Assembly (NCBI GenBank): GCA_002716355.1
Contig: PBAU01000001.1
Location: 10,573 to 22,116 of the forward strand
DNA: 11,544 nucleotides
Direction of reading: 5' to 3'
Source of the DNA: a bacterium
Lineage (GTDB): Bacteria; UBP7; UBA6624
Below, piece by piece: positions 3,822 through 10,579 of this stretch (positions within the stretch are counted from its first letter, which is position 1; every line of letters starts with the position of its first letter). The notes under the pieces are model-generated. The model did not search any database, was not told the DNA's origin, and saw nothing but the letters and a program-made list of their open reading frames with translations. The translations under genes were made by a program, and so were the position numbers.

Positions 3822-5110
3822 TATTGACCCTCAATGATAATTTCTATTTTAGACATAGATTCAAAATTGTAAATATCTTTAGTTATTCGAACTGATGCCA
3901 AAGCACCGTTTTCAAAACTAACCATCTCTTCGGCCCTGTTTGTAAGCTTCCATGTTGGGTAAAAAACTCTTTTTTGAGTTTTCACATCTGGAAAGATACC
4001 TTTAGATTCCGCAATCTCCTCAATCAAGCTAATCAAAGACTGTAAAAATAAATAATTATTCTGAACAAGAGCGGTATCCTCAAAGAACCGTTCTGCCAGA
4101 ATCTCCCCTTCTTTAAAAATGATGCCCGAAGGAACCCATTCAAATATTACTTTCACTGCATCTCCCACAAAAACATTTGAGAGAACGGATGTTCTTAAAA
4201 AATAATTTCCAGATTTTTTTGAACCTAAAGCTCTTGCTGCAAGCGTATCTGCGGTTTCAAATGCAAAACTAACACCCAGGCTTTCAATGTCAGAAATCAT
4301 TTTTTGAAAACTGCTTTTTAAATAATCGCCTAAAAGCAAAGGGTCCAAATCCGCAGGGACCATTAATCTTTTCAATTCTTGACCCTTAACCAAAACCAAA
4401 GTTCCCTCAGAAGCTCGAACCTCTGCATCATTCAATGCAGCTGTTAGCTGCAGTAAATCCTTTTGAAGATCATCTAATTGATTATTTTTTTCAAGTAATT
4501 CATTTTCTGTTTTTTGCAGATTGATACTTAATTCTGAAATGCTGTCATTCAATTTTTTTTCTTCCTCTTTTAAAGTCAGAACCTGATTTTCTTTTTCAGA
4601 AAGTTCCTGGGTTAAAGAAAGTCCTTGCTCTTTTAAAGTTTGGATTTGTGCATTTAAAACTTCCGCCTGTTTAGATGAGTTCATTATCTCAATTTCTAAC
4701 TGCTCTTTCAGGATCGTGAGATCTTGTATCTGGTTGTTACTATCATTTAAATCTATTTCTAATTTTCCAAAATTTATTTCAAGATCTTTATAGGAAATCT
4801 GCAAATCTGAATATGTATCCTCTATACCCTGAAGCTGCTCTGAACTTTCTGCAAGCTCCTTTTTAATTGCCTGAATCCGAAAAACAGCATCCTGAAAATC
4901 ACTACTTACAAAGGATAACAATCCGTAAATAAAGGCTGAAACCAAAAAACCAATCATGCCTGCCCATATTGCAGATGCATACTTGGGCCTTAGGCCTAGC
5001 AATCTTTTTTTACTTTTTGAATATCTTCTACCTGCTATATCTCCCAAATAAGCAATAATCCCTCCAGAAAGCAAGAGGAAAAGAACATTGATTAAACCAT
5101 CATTAAACAT
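3821..5110 (-). CDS. Membrane-anchored coiled-coil protein, DUF3084-like
   Basis: 429 aa. The N-terminus has two hydrophobic helices bracketing GDIAGRRYSKSKKRLLGLRPKYASAIW. From memory, this matches the conserved GD-x-G-x-K-x-GK-x-R-x(3)-LRP head of DUF3084 proteins. About 160 aa of heptad-like Leu/Gln/Glu-rich sequence follow (aa ~80-235), then a globular C-terminal domain. The family assignment is unverified. Confidence 0.55.
   Translation of the reverse strand: MFNDGLINVLFLLLSGGIIAYLGDIAGRRYSKSKKRLLGLRPKYASAIWAGMIGFLVSAFIYGLLSFVSSDFQDAVFRIQAIKKELAESSEQLQGIEDTYSDLQISYKDLEINFGKLEIDLNDSNNQIQDLTILKEQLEIEIMNSSKQAEVLNAQIQTLKEQGLSLTQELSEKENQVLTLKEEEKKLNDSISELSINLQKTENELLEKNNQLDDLQKDLLQLTAALNDAEVRASEGTLVLVKGQELKRLMVPADLDPLLLGDYLKSSFQKMISDIESLGVSFAFETADTLAARALGSKKSGNYFLRTSVLSNVFVGDAVKVIFEWVPSGIIFKEGEILAERFFEDTALVQNNYLFLQSLISLIEEIAESKGIFPDVKTQKRVFYPTWKLTNRAEEMVSFENGALASVRITKDIYNFESMSKIEIIIEGQ
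3828..3832 (-). promoter_or_regulatory. Shine-Dalgarno (GAGGG) for metG, embedded in the 3' end of the upstream gene
   Basis: Minus-strand reading is GAGGGTCAATA-ATG, with 6-nt spacing to the start at 3821. Confidence 0.5.
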
Positions 5111-5122
5111 AATTAAAAAAAA

Positions 5123-5905
5123 CTATTTTTTTTGATCTGAGTTGTTATTTTGAAAATCAGTAATAGTTTTTTTTGTTGTTTCTAAAGACCAAGATTCTGC
5201 AAATAAATCTGCCTCTTTGATCAATGCATCTTTCTGGGACATCTCCAAATGCAGGCAAAGAGATTGTTTGGCTAACGCAATTGTTTGCTTGTTTTTAACA
5301 AGATACGGTTTTAAAAATTCTTTTGCATCAGCGATTAATTCTTTTGGTCTAGATACCTTTTGTATCAAACCCATTTCAAATGCTTCATCAGCTCTGAACA
5401 AACGACCACTTAAAACCAAATCCAAAGCTTTGGTTCTCCCAAGAAGCTCGACTAACCTTTGGCCACCCCCCCATCCAGGGATAAGACCCAAATTAATTTC
5501 AGTTTGACCAAATTTTGCCCTTGAACTAGCAATTCTAAAATCACAACAAAGCGCAAGCTCCAAGCCTCCGCCAAAACACATTCCATTTACTGCCGCTAAA
5601 GTTACAAGAGGTACGGATTCCATTAAGCTCCATATGCTATTCCCTTTTTGAGCTAAACGAGCTGCACCGGCTGTATCCTGGGACATAAGTTCAGGAAGGT
5701 ATGCCCCCGCTGAAAACATTGGCCCCCGGCCAGTTATTATGATTGCTTTTAAACTATCATTTTTAGAAGCAAGCAAAGCGCACTCTTTAAAGCTATCTGA
5801 AAAAGCATCTGACAAATTATTTAATGGATTCCCTTTGGTGTTAATCGTGATGATCAAACAGTCATCGTCTTGCTTGGCTTCAAAATAATCAGATTGATAA
5901 AACAT
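5123..5905 (-). CDS. Enoyl-CoA hydratase/isomerase (crotonase) family protein
   Basis: 260 aa. Oxyanion-hole segment FSAGAY and the block FGGGLELALCCDFRIASSRAKFGQTEINLGLIPGWGGGQRL. Both Glu positions that are catalytic in canonical hydratases are present. ATG 5905..5903 overlaps the upstream TGA by 1 nt (TGATG). Confidence 0.85.
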   Translation of the reverse strand: MFYQSDYFEAKQDDDCLIITINTKGNPLNNLSDAFSDSFKECALLASKNDSLKAIIITGRGPMFSAGAYLPELMSQDTAGAARLAQKGNSIWSLMESVPLVTLAAVNGMCFGGGLELALCCDFRIASSRAKFGQTEINLGLIPGWGGGQRLVELLGRTKALDLVLSGRLFRADEAFEMGLIQKVSRPKELIADAKEFLKPYLVKNKQTIALAKQSLCLHLEMSQKDALIKEADLFAESWSLETTKKTITDFQNNNSDQKK

Positions 5906-7686
5906 CAGAACTTAAACTTAACGTCTCCTTTCTTTTTCCAGTCTGCTGCTTTCGGGGCTCTTTTCCTACCCCTGTCAATTTCTTCTTGTGACTGCAAATA
6001 CATATCTCCGGGCACGCATGGAGGATATGGAAACTGCATAATTACAGGCTGACTATAACGAGCATGCTTCAAAAGCAAAGTTCCCTTCGGGAATATGGCC
6101 ATTTTTTTCTTAACCTCATCCGGAAGGTATGAGTATTCTGGAAGTCCTAATTCAGTTGGCCCAGATCTTCCGTAGCATATAGTTGAACTATTATCTGTGA
6201 CCTGCTTGTCGATCATTGAAGCAAACTGTTCAGCACCGAAAAAAGTAAGACCTAATGATCTTCCTCTAGCAGTAGCGTGAATGATAGACTCCTTCAGTGT
6301 TGTGCTTTTATCTGCTGGAGCAAATTTATTCAACTCATCAACAAACACAATAATATTGTCAAGGCCCTCCTCTTCTGTTTTCATTTCAACCAACTCAAAC
6401 AATCTCTTTAACACCCTTTCAAAAACCATCTGCTGGCCTCTATCGTTTAAGGCCTGAATATCAATAACGTATATATCTCCTGTTTTAAATTCATCTAATG
6501 GTATATCTTGTGGTTTTTCTGGAATATCTCTCGAATTAACCAAACCTTTAAAAAGCTCTGGGAGCGTAACTAAATTTTGAACAAGTTTAAAAAAGGTGGT
6601 TCTCTTATGTCCGTGCCAATGCTCCCTGTCTCTCATTACCCTTCGTTCTTCAACCAAAAAATCAACAAGATCTGGAAACTCTTTAATCGTTTCGTCTTTA
6701 TCAACTATGTCAAGCATATCTTCATATGCTGCTTGAACATTGTCATCCCAATCATCCTCATCAAAAAGCTCTGGTAGGTATTTTCTTAACTCAGGTATAT
6801 CCCAAACAAAATATTCAACAGAACCATCTTGCCTTAAGCTGTTAACTTTTGATGAGGTGGTTGAAGAGTATGGCGCAAAAATACGCAATTGATCAAATGG
6901 TTCAGGAGGAACATTTAGTTCTTTGTATATTTCTCTGTAAAATTCACCTTGTGAACTTTTTTCCTGAAGTTCAGGATTAGCCTTATCTAAAAACAATAAA
7001 TCCTTACCTTTAACATTAAATAAAACTACGCCTATTCTTTTTTTCTTATACTCTTGATTTCTTTGGAAAAAAGTTTGTACTGATTTAAGCATAAACTCAA
7101 CCAAACTTGTTTTGGTAGCCAAACCTGAAATTCCACTAATATTAAAGTGTGCTCCCTCTGGCCCTAAAAGAAATTCAATATCGACATAAATAGGTGTAAG
7201 TTGTCCATCTCCATTTTTAATAACACCTATAGGTACCCCTCTATCCTCAATATAGCCCTCCATATTAAAAGCCCTTCTGACTCCAGCAGGGTTAGCATAA
7301 AAAATATTAGCTCGAGTAACGGGCCTTGCTTTATCATCAGTTGATCCAATGATATTTGCTTTTGCAACAAGAACCTCTGAAACATCTGTTGGCAGTGACT
7401 GATCTGGTTTTCCAAAATCATGTGATATATAGTCAGAAAGAAAGTTTGGCATATCCATAGTTGAACGCAAATCAACAACAGTTCCAAATGTTATATGTCC
7501 ATCATCTCTAACAGCAGCAACAATGTTCCCTAATTCAAGATTTTGCTCCTTTCTAGAAAGCCAAAAATGAAAATAAGAAGAGGTGTTTGGATGTTTTTCA
7601 GTGCTAGCACCCTTTCCTACAAAACCCCACTCAAGGTTTACATATTCATTAAATTTTTCTTCTGCAAAATGAAAATTCTTGTTCAT
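5905..7686 (-). CDS. herA: HerA-like (FtsK/HerA superfamily, COG0433-type) ATPase with N-terminal HAS-barrel-like domain
   Basis: 593 aa. N-terminal barrel-like region (LELGNIVAAVRDDGHITFGTVVDL ... VLVAKANIIGS ... RANIFYANPAGVRRAF). P-loop region AHFNISGISGLATKTS, which is deviant. HerA-typical GDIYVIDIQALNDRGQQMVFERVLKRLF followed by Walker B NIIVFVDELNKFAP. ARGRSLGLTFFGAEQFASMID corresponds to the REGRK-x-G...Q-x-P block of HerA proteins. A strong SD lies upstream. Confidence 0.75.
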   Translation of the reverse strand: MNKNFHFAEEKFNEYVNLEWGFVGKGASTEKHPNTSSYFHFWLSRKEQNLELGNIVAAVRDDGHITFGTVVDLRSTMDMPNFLSDYISHDFGKPDQSLPTDVSEVLVAKANIIGSTDDKARPVTRANIFYANPAGVRRAFNMEGYIEDRGVPIGVIKNGDGQLTPIYVDIEFLLGPEGAHFNISGISGLATKTSLVEFMLKSVQTFFQRNQEYKKKRIGVVLFNVKGKDLLFLDKANPELQEKSSQGEFYREIYKELNVPPEPFDQLRIFAPYSSTTSSKVNSLRQDGSVEYFVWDIPELRKYLPELFDEDDWDDNVQAAYEDMLDIVDKDETIKEFPDLVDFLVEERRVMRDREHWHGHKRTTFFKLVQNLVTLPELFKGLVNSRDIPEKPQDIPLDEFKTGDIYVIDIQALNDRGQQMVFERVLKRLFELVEMKTEEEGLDNIIVFVDELNKFAPADKSTTLKESIIHATARGRSLGLTFFGAEQFASMIDKQVTDNSSTICYGRSGPTELGLPEYSYLPDEVKKKMAIFPKGTLLLKHARYSQPVIMQFPYPPCVPGDMYLQSQEEIDRGRKRAPKAADWKKKGDVKFKF

Positions 7687-7690
7687 AATA

Positions 7691-7698
7691 CCATCCTT
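7691..7698 (-). promoter_or_regulatory. Shine-Dalgarno (AAGGATGG) for the HerA-like gene
   Basis: Minus-strand intergenic reading is AATAGTAAGGATGGTATT-ATG. The AAGGA core sits 7 nt from the start at 7686. This is the best SD among the minus-strand genes. Confidence 0.6.
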
Positions 7699-7704
7699 AC
7701 TATT

Positions 7705-8697
7705 TTAGGTTACTATTGCTCCGTGCAAAAACCATTTAATTGTTTCAGCCTTAGGTAAATGGTTTGTTAAAAAATCAGTACAAACTTTTAAAGGGTGAAC
7801 TAATCTTTCCCATTTTGGGCTTGGATAAGAAACAGGATTTCTTAAACTGAAAACCAATCTCGAAACCTCATCCACGCTTCCGGGGTCAAGAGGCATTCCT
7901 TCGTATACTTCAGGTCTGATTAAACCAAAATTAGCCGAATGTGCACGAGGTTGCCTAATTCTCAAAAACCAACTTGTAATTTCATCTTTCTGTGGGGTTG
8001 AATATGAAAACAATGCACTTCTTTCAGAATAACCGAGGCTAAGAATATTACGTTGTGTCTCTGGTGTAAAAAATAAAGGATGATTGTCTTTACATAAACC
8101 AACAGCACAGGGGATAGGTTTTGGAAGATGTGCTAAAGATCCATCTACTAAAATTTTTTCTTTATATTTTTTCTCCTCTGCCCATTCGTAAAGATGATTG
8201 GACTCGAGCTTGTGACGTTGCTGTCTGGCCCTCATGACTGCAGCATACCTTTGCGCACCAAAATAACCTGTTTTCTCACCAGTGTCTAAAAAACCTTTTG
8301 GAAGATCGGATCCCAACAAAGACTTAGAAACTAATGCAAACTCCTCAATTCTGGGTTGCCCCCACATTTCAAAATTTCCATTTCTAAAACCAATAATTAA
8401 ACTTGCAATAATTGAATAATGAACTGTTACCGGATTGCTCCCAAAATCAAAAGTTCCTATTAAAAATGTTTTTTGAACTCCATCAGTAAACCATCTAATA
8501 GCTAGATCTTGATTTTCAGATTTTGCAATTTTTAAATCCTGAATCATCCCTCCCTCATGAACAGTTGTAACGTCTCTCAAATCCAATCGCTGTGGAGCAA
8601 AAGAGGCCTCTTCTATTTGATCTGCTGAGGCAATTTCACCACCACTCTCAACTAGGAAATTCTTAATATTAGCAAGTGTATCTGTTAGAAATGTCAT
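7705..8697 (-). CDS. nurA: NurA-like nuclease (RNase H-like fold), partner of the adjacent HerA-like ATPase
   Basis: 330 aa. Order and spacing of short motifs fit the NurA domain: an early acidic strand (IRWFTDGVQ, D72), an Arg/Glu helix (MRARQQRHKLESNHL, E165) about 20 aa before the hallmark ILVDGSL (D185, nt 8143..8145), and a C-terminal SYPSP...RLVHPL (Y291/H301). It lies 18 bp upstream of a HerA-type ATPase, the canonical pairing. The assignment rests on motifs only and is unverified. Confidence 0.55.
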   Translation of the reverse strand: MTFLTDTLANIKNFLVESGGEIASADQIEEASFAPQRLDLRDVTTVHEGGMIQDLKIAKSENQDLAIRWFTDGVQKTFLIGTFDFGSNPVTVHYSIIASLIIGFRNGNFEMWGQPRIEEFALVSKSLLGSDLPKGFLDTGEKTGYFGAQRYAAVMRARQQRHKLESNHLYEWAEEKKYKEKILVDGSLAHLPKPIPCAVGLCKDNHPLFFTPETQRNILSLGYSERSALFSYSTPQKDEITSWFLRIRQPRAHSANFGLIRPEVYEGMPLDPGSVDEVSRLVFSLRNPVSYPSPKWERLVHPLKVCTDFLTNHLPKAETIKWFLHGAIVT

Positions 8698-8703
8698 TCC
8701 TTT

Positions 8704-10050
8704 CTATTGTAATCTAGCAATGTGCGGCAATTTTTCCCCAGTTTCAACAATTGCACCATTTGCAATAATTGAATACGAATCATTCACAAACCCTTCCAGA
8801 TTACCTGAATAATCTGAAAGCCTGACATCAACATCAACACAAAAAACATCATTACCTTCCTCTAGGGAGCCTAGGATTTTCCCGGAACCTTCCCAACCTT
8901 TTACAACAACCTCTTCATTATCCTGAGTTTTAATCAAAATTGCCCCCGGTCTATTACCTGATGGTTTTTGCACATTGAGAACATTACCTTTTATTGATTT
9001 AGAGCGACCTTGTTTTTGCCAAGGTGTATCTTGAATATACTGATGATAAGAACCGCACCAGGGTTTTGCATCACACCATTTACAGTTATTTTCAGATGGC
9101 CTTGCTTCAAATAAAGACTCTGGTGATCCTGATTGCTGCTTAATTGCAGTAGCTGTATCGTTAAGGGTTAAAATCCAGCCATTAATAGACTCTTGATCGA
9201 GTTCCAGCTTTTTGATTTGTTGTGACCCAGTGTACCAAAACTCTACAGCGATAGGCATGTTGTCAAATCTTTCAGAAGCCAAATGTGCATACAGCCATCC
9301 TTGCAATTCGTGATTAAAATCAATTTCATTTTTCTTTGCCTTCCCAGTTTTGTAATCGACAATTTTGACATTATTATTTTCATCAACAAAAATCGCATCA
9401 ATAATTCCGCCCAATATGCCATCTTCTGAAAAAATACATGATTCGGTTTCAGTCGGGCCAAGTAACCGAACTGAATCCTTGTCCATTTTCCCATCAGTCA
9501 TATTATGAATAACCCAAATAATTTGATCCAAAATATCATCTCTTTTAGAGTCATCCCATTTGCCTTTTTTTCGTGCAGATGTCTCAAAGCGAGCTTTATA
9601 TTTATCCCAATAATCCATCAAAAGTGCCTTGATGTATGAGGATGGTTTTGCTTTGTCTAAGTCACATTGAAACAAAGCCTCTAAAACCGCATGAGCGACA
9701 CTGCCACGGTATAAAGCGGGGCTAACCATAGTTGGAATTTTTTTCTCGTAAGAAAAATAATACTGTTTTGGACACAGCAAATATTGGCTTGCTTTAGAAA
9801 AAGACAAACTGCCTTTTTGCCAGCGTTTCCGTGTTGGTAATTTTGGTATATCAACCCTTTCTGCTAATATTTCTGGCAATGGGTTGTTTTTAACGAACCA
9901 AGACTCCACATGCAAGATACCCGTTTCATCTGGGCCATCTACAACCTTTTTAGGAAACCATTTTTTAAAATTATCGTCTATTCGTACAATATAAACAGCT
10001 TTTTCTGTTTCTCTTTCGGTGTGCCACATTCCTTTTTGCTGTTTTTTCAT
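8704..10050 (-). CDS. Cas4/AddB-type PD-(D/E)XK nuclease with 4-Cys Fe-S cluster signature, N-terminal extension and C-terminal OB-fold-like domain
   Basis: 448 aa. N-terminal Cys in ASQYLLCPKQYYFSY (C93, nt 9772..9774). Motif I is GSVAHAVLE. The nuclease core is GGIIDAIFVD (D218) ... VKIVDYKTGK (D232, K234). QxxxY is QGWLYAHL. The C-terminal CKWCDAKPWC (C323/C326/C332, nt 9055..9084) completes the C-Xn-C-X2-C-X5-C pattern of Cas4/AddB iron-sulfur nucleases. About 85 aa precede the core and about 100 aa follow it. No SD precedes ATG 10050, and an alternative ATG lies at codon 8 (10029..10027). Confidence 0.8.
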   Translation of the reverse strand: MKKQQKGMWHTERETEKAVYIVRIDDNFKKWFPKKVVDGPDETGILHVESWFVKNNPLPEILAERVDIPKLPTRKRWQKGSLSFSKASQYLLCPKQYYFSYEKKIPTMVSPALYRGSVAHAVLEALFQCDLDKAKPSSYIKALLMDYWDKYKARFETSARKKGKWDDSKRDDILDQIIWVIHNMTDGKMDKDSVRLLGPTETESCIFSEDGILGGIIDAIFVDENNNVKIVDYKTGKAKKNEIDFNHELQGWLYAHLASERFDNMPIAVEFWYTGSQQIKKLELDQESINGWILTLNDTATAIKQQSGSPESLFEARPSENNCKWCDAKPWCGSYHQYIQDTPWQKQGRSKSIKGNVLNVQKPSGNRPGAILIKTQDNEEVVVKGWEGSGKILGSLEEGNDVFCVDVDVRLSDYSGNLEGFVNDSYSIIANGAIVETGEKLPHIARLQ

Positions 10051-10075
10051 ATGAATTAATGATAAAGTAGATTAG

Positions 10076-10579
10076 ATGAAAACTCATACACGTTTAGGTT
10101 TTTCATTTCTGACTCTATTGGTGCTAATTTGGTTGATTTTTTCATCATTTGATAACAAACATCTATACTTTGGGTTACTAGTAATTATGCTTAGTTACAA
10201 CTGGTGCAAAAAGATATTATTTATTTCTACTTCTAAAAATAAATTTTATATTTTTGATTTAAACTGGATTGCTTTAGCTGAGTATATGCTTTGGCTTTGT
10301 TGGCAAATTTTCATTGCAAACATCCATGTTGCAAAAATAATACTATCAAATAAAAACGATTTAGATCCACAGGTCATGATTTTTAAATCGGATTTAAAAC
10401 ACCCATTGGCAAAGTCGCTACTAGCTAACTCAATAACATTGACACCTGGAACAATTACATTGAATGTTTTTGCTGACAACTTTGAAGTTCACGCGCTAAA
10501 TGAAGAATTCACCCACCTGATAAAAGTTGGAGAGCTAAATAAAAAAATAGCTAAAATTTTTAAAGTTAAAAATGATTGA
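10076..10579 (+). CDS. mrpE: Mrp/Mnh-type cation/proton antiporter subunit E (MbhA-like)
   Basis: 167 aa with two N-terminal TM helices. Hallmark LLANSITLTPGTITL followed by FEVHAL. ANIHVAKIIL precedes it, as in MnhE proteins. Confidence 0.85.
   Translation: MKTHTRLGFSFLTLLVLIWLIFSSFDNKHLYFGLLVIMLSYNWCKKILFISTSKNKFYIFDLNWIALAEYMLWLCWQIFIANIHVAKIILSNKNDLDPQVMIFKSDLKHPLAKSLLANSITLTPGTITLNVFADNFEVHALNEEFTHLIKVGELNKKIAKIFKVKND

Follow-up and report, generated by a model that had tools for sequence, protein, structure and literature searches.

A predicted Cas4/AddB-like nuclease gene beside a strongly constrained NurA-HerA gene pair in one bacterial clade

The NurA-HerA complex of Deinococcus radiodurans (PDB 7F6D, 7WRW and 7WRX; PMC9960219) is encoded by a nurA gene followed by herA, with no mre11 or rad50 beside them, and the archaeal HerA-NurA-Mre11-Rad50 operon follows the same logic, in which a hexameric translocase feeds a dimeric RNase H-like nuclease. 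HerA-family ATPases also stand next to effector enzymes in the Sir2-HerA and DUF4297-HerA systems. The role of NurA-HerA in bacteria is disputed, given the slight phenotypes of Deinococcus and Thermus mutants. Here we describe an 11,544-nucleotide (nt) stretch of the genome of an uncultured marine bacterium of the UBP7 lineage (UBA6624; GenBank assembly GCA_002716355.1, contig PBAU01000001.1, positions 10,573 to 22,116 of the forward strand), called the window below, in which a predicted bacterial-type NurA-HerA pair keeps the nurA-then-herA order of D. radiodurans and differs from that locus by an extra upstream gene for a Cas4/AddB-type nuclease. The herA and nurA genes are under exceptionally strong purifying selection, and the nuclease gene joins them in a single clade. 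An initial annotation of this DNA had proposed that the three products form one machine for DNA-end processing or immunity, with two nucleases on one translocase. Its description of three consecutive minus-strand genes was borne out by the coordinates of the open reading frames (ORFs), which leave gaps of 6 nt (8698-8703) and 18 nt (7687-7704). All three proteins are labelled hypothetical in the deposited record; the assignments below, with lengths in amino acids (aa), are our predictions.

8704-10050, minus strand: Cas4/AddB-type (Pfam PDDEXK_1) iron-sulfur (Fe-S) nuclease, 448 aa, the first gene of the array
7705-8697, minus strand: bacterial-type NurA nuclease (RNase H-like), 330 aa, from profile searches and predicted fold
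5905-7686, minus strand: bacterial-type HerA hexameric translocase ATPase, 593 aa, from a phmmer match to D. radiodurans HerA

The HerA assignment, already made in the initial annotation, is supported by a phmmer match to D. radiodurans HerA (chain 7f6d_B, E=2e-42) whose alignment spans residues 145-310 and 363-557. Pfam did not recognize the protein, its HerA/DUF87 models included, and gave no match for residues 1-194, the part that would hold the N-terminal HAS-barrel-like head suggested in the initial annotation. The window proteins are so far from the archaeal HerA and NurA proteins in sequence identity that neither the Pfam HerA/DUF87 models nor the NurA model matched them. PHROGs returned only a weak terminase match. 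At least 2783 homologs were found, and an alignment of 18 HerA sequences with 40-80% identity (A3) located Walker A, Walker B and arginine segments that agree with those of the D. radiodurans protein:

7105-7134, minus strand: HerA Walker A, G185-I-S-G-L-A-T-K192-T-S194, invariant in the 18 sequences
6322-6348, minus strand: HerA Walker B, V-F-V-D450-E451-L-N-K-F, with D450 and E451 invariant in the 18 sequences, aligned to 'VLDELNKYAP' of D. radiodurans
6256-6270, minus strand: HerA A473-R-G-R-S477, a probable arginine-finger segment, with R474 and R476 invariant in the 18 sequences, aligned to 'ERGRSLG' of D. radiodurans

The C-terminal tail of HerA (window 5905-5990, residues ~565-593) is rich in Lys and Arg and has an aromatic end (...KKKGDVKFKF). 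Similar tails occur in relatives of 57-80% identity, an F-x-F-type motif at or near the C-terminus is mostly kept at 45-49%, and it is absent in the 40-43% branch. This tail could be a partner-binding peptide.

By itself, the 330-aa protein matched nothing in Pfam, NCBIfam, PADLOC, PHROG or a single-sequence PDB search, being too diverged from D. radiodurans NurA for direct pairwise detection, and a 7-sequence profile of its family reached that protein only at E=1.8. A profile search found 759 relatives. When a 50-sequence profile (A2) was compared with the PDB, it matched D. radiodurans NurA (7f6d_H, E=3.8e-12) and Thermotoga maritima TM1739 (1zup, E=2.9e-9). The Pfam NurA family (PF09376) was reached by 7 of the 50 family members and not by the window protein alone. 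In the predicted structure, which had a predicted local distance difference test (pLDDT) value of 91.5, the sole significant Foldseek matches were again to these two proteins (7f6d_G, E=4e-12; 1zup, E=6.5e-11). Residues D72, E165, D185 and K203 are each shared by at least 90% of the 50 sequences; K203, the lysine of the aligned GxxK motif, maps to K201, the catalytic lysine of D. radiodurans NurA, if the numbering of the PDB chain is offset by 20 residues. TM1739, which is essentially uncharacterised biochemically, is only ~16% identical to the window protein, and its D / E / D-G / G-x-x-K / G-x-R-S motifs match in a full-length profile alignment. The family profile and the modelled fold thus point to a bacterial-type NurA with an RNase H-like fold, in line with the NurA-like motif order noted in the initial annotation.

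To place the pair among its relatives, HerA homologs were sampled over 27-98% identity by contig look-ups and a metagenome scan, and all ORFs of the resulting loci were searched with hidden Markov models (HMMs) of the families; a single-protein scan of genome contigs gave near-identical relatives only (L003-L007). In 53 of the 58 unrelated metagenomic loci outside the window's clade whose upstream sequence exceeds 1.1 kb, nurA is the gene immediately ahead of herA. NurA-HerA is therefore a genuine, general unit. No mre11 or rad50 was found among the large ORFs of the window by a Pfam scan, in line with the initial annotation, nor in the related loci; the extra gene of the window encodes a PD-(D/E)XK Fe-S nuclease in the place that Mre11 and Rad50 take in the archaeal operon.

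Some loci depart from the usual arrangement. In L070 (2677-6009) the order is inverted, with a NurA-like ORF of weak profile score (E=3.4e-11) directly downstream of HerA. L180 (6001-7788) encodes a HerA of 57% identity, followed by genes for enoyl-CoA hydratase (ECH) and methionyl-tRNA synthetase (MetRS); a 1604-aa repeat protein is encoded on the opposite strand upstream of HerA, and no NurA occurs within 6 kb on either side, so that NurA may have moved or been lost. In L014 (10357-12356), which belongs to the clade of the window, gene calling gave HerA as two genes of 252 and 373 aa; a frameshift, an assembly error or a pseudogene could account for this, and the gene is intact in the otherwise matching contig L013.

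Comparison with the same contig, L013, showed very different degrees of conservation along the locus: 96% identity for HerA and 90% for NurA, as against 74% for MetRS, 70% for ECH, 62% for the DUF3084 protein and 61% for the Cas4-like protein. HerA is also more conserved than MetRS in more distant lineages (~80-81% vs 52% in L008; 61% vs 36% in L010). Synonymous divergence (dS) from L003 is alike for all genes (0.75-1.15), and the ratio of nonsynonymous to synonymous divergence (dN/dS) is 0.010 for HerA, 0.024 for NurA, 0.056 for the Cas4-like protein and 0.059 for MetRS. HerA and NurA are thus under exceptionally strong purifying selection, and the Cas4-like gene is functional and evolves like ordinary housekeeping genes. 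A recent horizontal transfer might have explained why HerA and NurA are so similar between lineages; we rejected this, because the synonymous divergence of these genes equals that of their neighbours. Extreme constraint, housekeeping neighbours and a conserved position together argue for a core chromosomal role in DNA maintenance rather than a mobile immunity system. Whereas the Deinococcus and Thermus pairs have mild mutant phenotypes, the window pair is far more constrained than its housekeeping neighbours; constraint of this degree would not be expected from the nearly silent knock-outs in those two genera.

The 448-aa protein matched Pfam PDDEXK_1 (E=3.7e-30; 106 bits, the gathering score being 22) over residues 81-332 and PHROG 'exonuclease' families (E=3.7e-30), with weak NCBIfam matches to the nuclease ends of AddA and AddB. 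We aligned it with the four known cluster representatives of its family (A4, described below). Both the four-cysteine Fe-S pattern (C93, C323-x2-C326-x5-C332) and the nuclease catalytic residues (D218, D232-Y-K234, Q250-x3-Y254) are invariant in this alignment, and binding of an Fe-S cluster is predicted from the cysteines. Three regions can be distinguished:

9031-9810, minus strand: PD-(D/E)XK nuclease core with the four-cysteine pattern, D218, D232-x-K234 and Q250-x3-Y254, from Pfam, A4 and Foldseek
9871-10050, minus strand: N-terminal small beta domain of ~60 residues with a W-F-P-K-x-V-V motif, from a low-confidence model
8761-9000, minus strand: C-terminal beta barrel resembling an oligonucleotide/oligosaccharide-binding (OB) fold, residues ~351-430, from model topology and Foldseek

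An AlphaFold model built from 5 sequences was poor (mean pLDDT 50) and usable only in the OB-like region, residues 351-430, where 10-residue blocks had mean pLDDT values of 70-91. The modelled order of elements there, strand-strand-strand-helix-strand-strand, is OB-like, and Foldseek matched the region to the Teb1 OB domain, RPA-related proteins, IF1, SSB and POT1 with a probability of 1.0 and target-normalised template modelling (TM) scores of 0.5-0.6. The nuclease core matched ACE1, MGME1, AdnAB and SSO0001. The N-terminal ~60 residues were modelled as three strands at a pLDDT of ~60 and matched no Pfam or PHROG family. The Cas4/AddB-type four-cysteine nuclease with an OB domain described in the initial annotation is thus supported by the Pfam match, the invariant cysteines and the OB-like model.

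The protein can be described as a predicted Cas4/AddB-like nuclease of the PF12705 branch that lies outside the core Cas4 family. Its score against TIGR00372 (cas4) was 36.7 bits, below the cutoff of 65, and a bona fide CRISPR-associated Cas4 was rejected on this score and on the lack of cas genes and of a CRISPR array. Cas4, ACE1, solo-Cas4 proteins and UvrD-Cas4 fusions (PMC5704561) share its PD-(D/E)XK fold, Fe-S cysteines and PF12705 affiliation; compared with these accessory nucleases, the window protein adds the N-terminal and OB-like domains and has no CRISPR or Argonaute context. AddAB and AdnAB have the same AddB/Cas4 type of four-cysteine PD-(D/E)XK nuclease, but the window motor is a ring ATPase of the HerA/FtsK type and its nuclease is free-standing, with the additional beta unit and OB-like domain. 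Searches of phage and viral sequences returned generic RecB/Cas4-like exonucleases only, at ~25% identity and covering the nuclease core alone. A phylogenomic survey of Cas4 found PF12705 nucleases recurrently linked to UvrD and COG1205 helicases and contains no occurrence of HerA or NurA (PMC5704561; published in 2017). Full-text literature searches found no description of a Cas4-like/NurA/HerA trio, in agreement with the initial annotation, which had not recognised a named system in this composition; as far as the literature could be searched it is undescribed, its NurA-HerA core is already known, and the case for a third member is circumstantial.

A search of protein databases with the Cas4-OB protein gave four clusters. 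Three come from the window's clade. The fourth, P0130, was the only distant full-length homolog found in that search: it is 39% identical over the full length, keeps all three regions, shares ~24 invariant residues of the N-terminal domain and has one member named Candidatus Poseidoniia archaeon. In locus L016 (686-5712), the P0130 gene overlaps by 4 nt the end of a gene for a 1247-aa UvrD/PcrA/RecB-like helicase fused to a Cas4/AddB-like nuclease, and the two genes are probably translationally coupled. The three-domain family thus recurs beside DNA motors, which supports a role as an end-processing partner. A Pfam scan of the window found no UvrD-type (superfamily 1, SF1) helicase, such a helicase being present only beside the archaeal homolog in L016. 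The L016 pair resembles a minimal AddAB-like pair, and the occurrence of the family in both groups is a hint that marine group II archaea and the bacterial lineage of the window have exchanged genes.

From these results, we consider a housekeeping NurA-HerA resection or DNA-processing module of the Deinococcus/Thermotoga type, with the clade-specific Fe-S/OB nuclease as an accessory acting on the same ends, to be the best explanation of the locus, with a probability of roughly 0.5. The activities of the three proteins are those that we infer from their sequences. By homology with the D. radiodurans complex, which is known from structural and biochemical work (PMC9960219), the HerA hexamer would pump double-stranded DNA into the NurA dimer, which would digest the 5' strand during translocation and leave a 3' tail for recombination. 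The module is chromosomal, passed on vertically and set among housekeeping genes, and would serve genome maintenance, in break repair or fork processing. The Cas4-like protein would be an accessory single-strand, flap or end nuclease that trims or cleans the same DNA ends or degrades the strand that NurA leaves, a role like that of the AddB nuclease domain next to the motor AddA, or like that of RecJ. RecJ is a 5'-3' single-strand exonuclease with an OB fold. In Deinococcus it binds HerA, a precedent for a second nuclease on a bacterial HerA (PMC4663267). As a member of the DHH family, RecJ is unrelated in sequence to the window nuclease and is not encoded beside herA, and a RecJ-like interaction of the Cas4-like protein with HerA is a conjecture drawn from this analogy. 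All three products are DNA-end enzymes by their predicted identity. For the accessory role speak also the intact cysteines and catalytic residues of the Cas4-like protein, its dN/dS of 0.056 and the presence of its gene at all loci of the window's clade, in which synonymous sites are saturated. A three-protein machine, in which the Cas4-like gene would be co-transcribed with nurA-herA and its product physically or functionally coupled to them, is plausible. A stricter version, in which the Cas4-OB nuclease is a true third subunit or dedicated partner of the HerA-NurA ring, so that one translocase carries two nucleases, we regard as rather unlikely.

Several observations weigh against our best explanation of the locus. 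The Cas4-like/NurA/HerA trio occurs in one clade only, at 14 loci (L001-L007, L013-L015, L017, L018, L177 and L178). Among the 81 other HerA loci, of which 42 include more than 2.5 kb upstream, the Cas4-like gene was found in none, either with the family HMM or with a broadened HMM, which includes 138 viral Cas4-like sequences and picks up the nuclease domain of an unrelated UvrD fusion without difficulty. The sister lineages lack the gene as well (HerA identity ~80% in L008, 61% in L010, 60% in L179, 57% in L180 and 48% in L011). In these lineages a cytochrome bc/Nap block, ComM or L25 lies upstream in place of the Mrp operon. The adjacency therefore arose once, and the conserved three-component machine of the initial annotation is not established: in the comparison across genomes that it had called for, NurA-HerA proved syntenic and the Cas4-like gene did so only within the window's clade. 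Since every flanking gene is syntenic in that clade, with the Mrp operon and ECH-DUF3084-MetRS on either side, retention of the nuclease gene may reflect vertical inheritance and is no proof of selection for linkage. The dN of the Cas4-like protein is ~6-fold that of HerA. In the archaeal homolog, whose motor differs, the N-terminal domain of the Cas4-like protein is conserved to the same degree; this argues against a HerA-specific docking module. Deletions of nurA or herA in Deinococcus and Thermus are mild in effect, or even improve resistance (PMC9960219), so that resection for repair is not firm even for the bacterial pair. Scans of the window for promoters and terminators stayed at the background of shuffled sequence and do not define operon limits.

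The gene arrangement of the window bears on the same issue. A single long array of eight minus-strand ORFs runs from 10050 to 133 in DNA of ~36% G+C, and a plus-strand Mrp/Mnh antiporter operon begins at 10076. The HerA stop codon at 5905 overlaps the start of the ECH gene by 1 nt, and the array continues in the same direction with ECH, DUF3084, MetRS, D-2-hydroxyacid dehydrogenase and lipid A acyltransferase genes at spacings of -4 to +12 nt. The trio is thus part of a longer co-directional array and not an isolated cassette. Close packing is the norm across this array, functionally unrelated genes included, and the 6- and 18-nt gaps, which the initial annotation had used as an argument for a cassette, carry little weight alone. 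The order NurA-HerA-ECH-MetRS persists down to 36% MetRS identity. In L008, L010, L179 and L180, the order HerA-ECH-MetRS is kept over deep divergence with no obvious functional link, and synteny that lasts even for unrelated genes in this lineage calls for caution in reading function from adjacency. The start codons of the divergently oriented Cas4-like and mnhE genes are only 25 bp apart (10051-10075), so the promoters of both arrays must lie within coding sequence or overlap each other.

Much of this evidence would equally suit an independent neighbour, in which NurA-HerA is the functional unit and the Cas4-like protein a separate repair or recombination nuclease, brought in at an upstream rearrangement breakpoint and inherited passively in a compact genome. 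Confinement to one fully syntenic clade, absence from the sister clades with their other upstream neighbours, the equally tight packing of ECH, DUF3084, MetRS, dehydrogenase and acyltransferase genes, and the decoupled evolutionary rates of the Cas4-like protein and HerA/NurA all fit this explanation; by our estimate, one chance DNA-related neighbour among ~60 sampled neighbourhoods is not improbable. It leaves aside, however, that the three products share one functional theme, that the Cas4-like gene leads the array after the short divergent spacer, and that the archaeal homolog is overlapped by a helicase-nuclease motor gene, which suggests that the family normally works with a translocase. 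We hold it to be a serious possibility, somewhat short of an even chance. An anti-phage or anti-plasmid system, in which HerA would scaffold NurA and the Cas4-like protein as nuclease effectors against invading DNA ends in the manner of Sir2-HerA and DUF4297-HerA, seems improbable to us. Other branches of the same NurA-HerA family do occur in defence-like contexts, with DruA-like, SIR2, Eco57I-type methylase and Schlafen neighbours; the best PADLOC matches of the Cas4-like protein are the DruK and Cas4 models (literature searches on 'DruK' found only unrelated papers), and Cas4-family nucleases cooperate with Argonaute, as ACE1 does (PMC12094033). The window's branch, however, is flanked by conserved housekeeping genes (MetRS, ECH, lipid A acyltransferase, Mrp), with no mobile-element genes or compositional anomaly seen at the locus, dS values like those of its neighbours and dN/dS of only 0.010-0.056, whereas Sir2-HerA and DUF4297-HerA have other effectors and are mobile, patchy two-gene units. 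PADLOC gave only weak, generic matches (HerA 'Type III coevolved', 2.1e-7; mad8, 5.5e-7) and none for NurA. The immunity role suggested in the initial annotation is therefore disfavoured by the housekeeping context, the very low dN/dS and the lack of a meaningful PADLOC system match.

A CRISPR-related role is the least probable of all, and we give it very little credence. CRISPR-linked NurA-HerA paralogs are known in Pyrobaculum (PMC3396285), and the best PADLOC model for HerA is the one labelled 'Type III coevolved'. Searches for tandem and direct repeats revealed neither a CRISPR array nor any other repeat structure in the window, and no CRISPR array, cas1/cas2 or csm6 was present in the window or in 10-18 kb of the related loci; the nuclease, as noted, falls below the cas4 cutoff, and PF12705 is not the core Cas4 family. 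A CRISPR-linked pair of the Pyrobaculum kind was rejected on this context.

Other branches of the family carry different genes ahead of HerA. In ten loci with ~33-42% HerA identity (L030, L031, L035, L036, L037, L038, L040, L053, L054 and L056; e.g., L035 2604-6458 and L031 4474-8372), a gene related to DruA (PF14236/DUF4338, GNAT-like) lies directly upstream of NurA-HerA, with a gap of 4-10 bp or a short overlap where measured. The DruA-like gene is preceded by a DNA methylase gene and a type III Res gene in L031, and a DUF4365 gene lies near the three genes in L056. No PADLOC model matched the DruA-like or NurA proteins of this branch, and literature searches found nothing on such a trio, the matches to 'DruA' and 'NurA' being noise. 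DruA-like-NurA-HerA may be an undescribed defence cassette, and may be a better immunity candidate than the window's branch. L049 (5695-8701) has SIR2 upstream of HerA and no NurA, like the known Sir2-HerA system. Upstream of HerA, L060 (2066-8319) encodes an Eco57I-type methylase, L058 and L067 (~4390-8650) a radical-SAM-like protein, and L088 (1426-5648) a Schlafen AlbA_2/HATPase_c_4 protein. The position ahead of (NurA-)HerA seems to be a variable slot.

In this lineage HerA changes several-fold more slowly than a tRNA synthetase does and holds its chromosomal position over deep divergence, which implies a function of great importance to these marine bacteria. If the Fe-S nuclease does not cooperate with the pair, the locus would be another member of a known pair, and the three-gene picture would come from the packing of a compact genome. 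If it were a true third subunit, the Fe-S nuclease would do the job that Mre11-Rad50, RecJ or AddB does elsewhere, and the three-domain protein would be a portable 'second-strand nuclease' module, used with HerA in this bacterium and with a UvrD-type helicase in marine group II archaea. Should the nuclease cooperate with NurA-HerA, a single nuclease module would be able to work with ring translocases as well as with SF1 helicases, and a third bacterial solution for DNA-end resection would stand beside RecBCD/AddAB/AdnAB and RecJ-RecQ.

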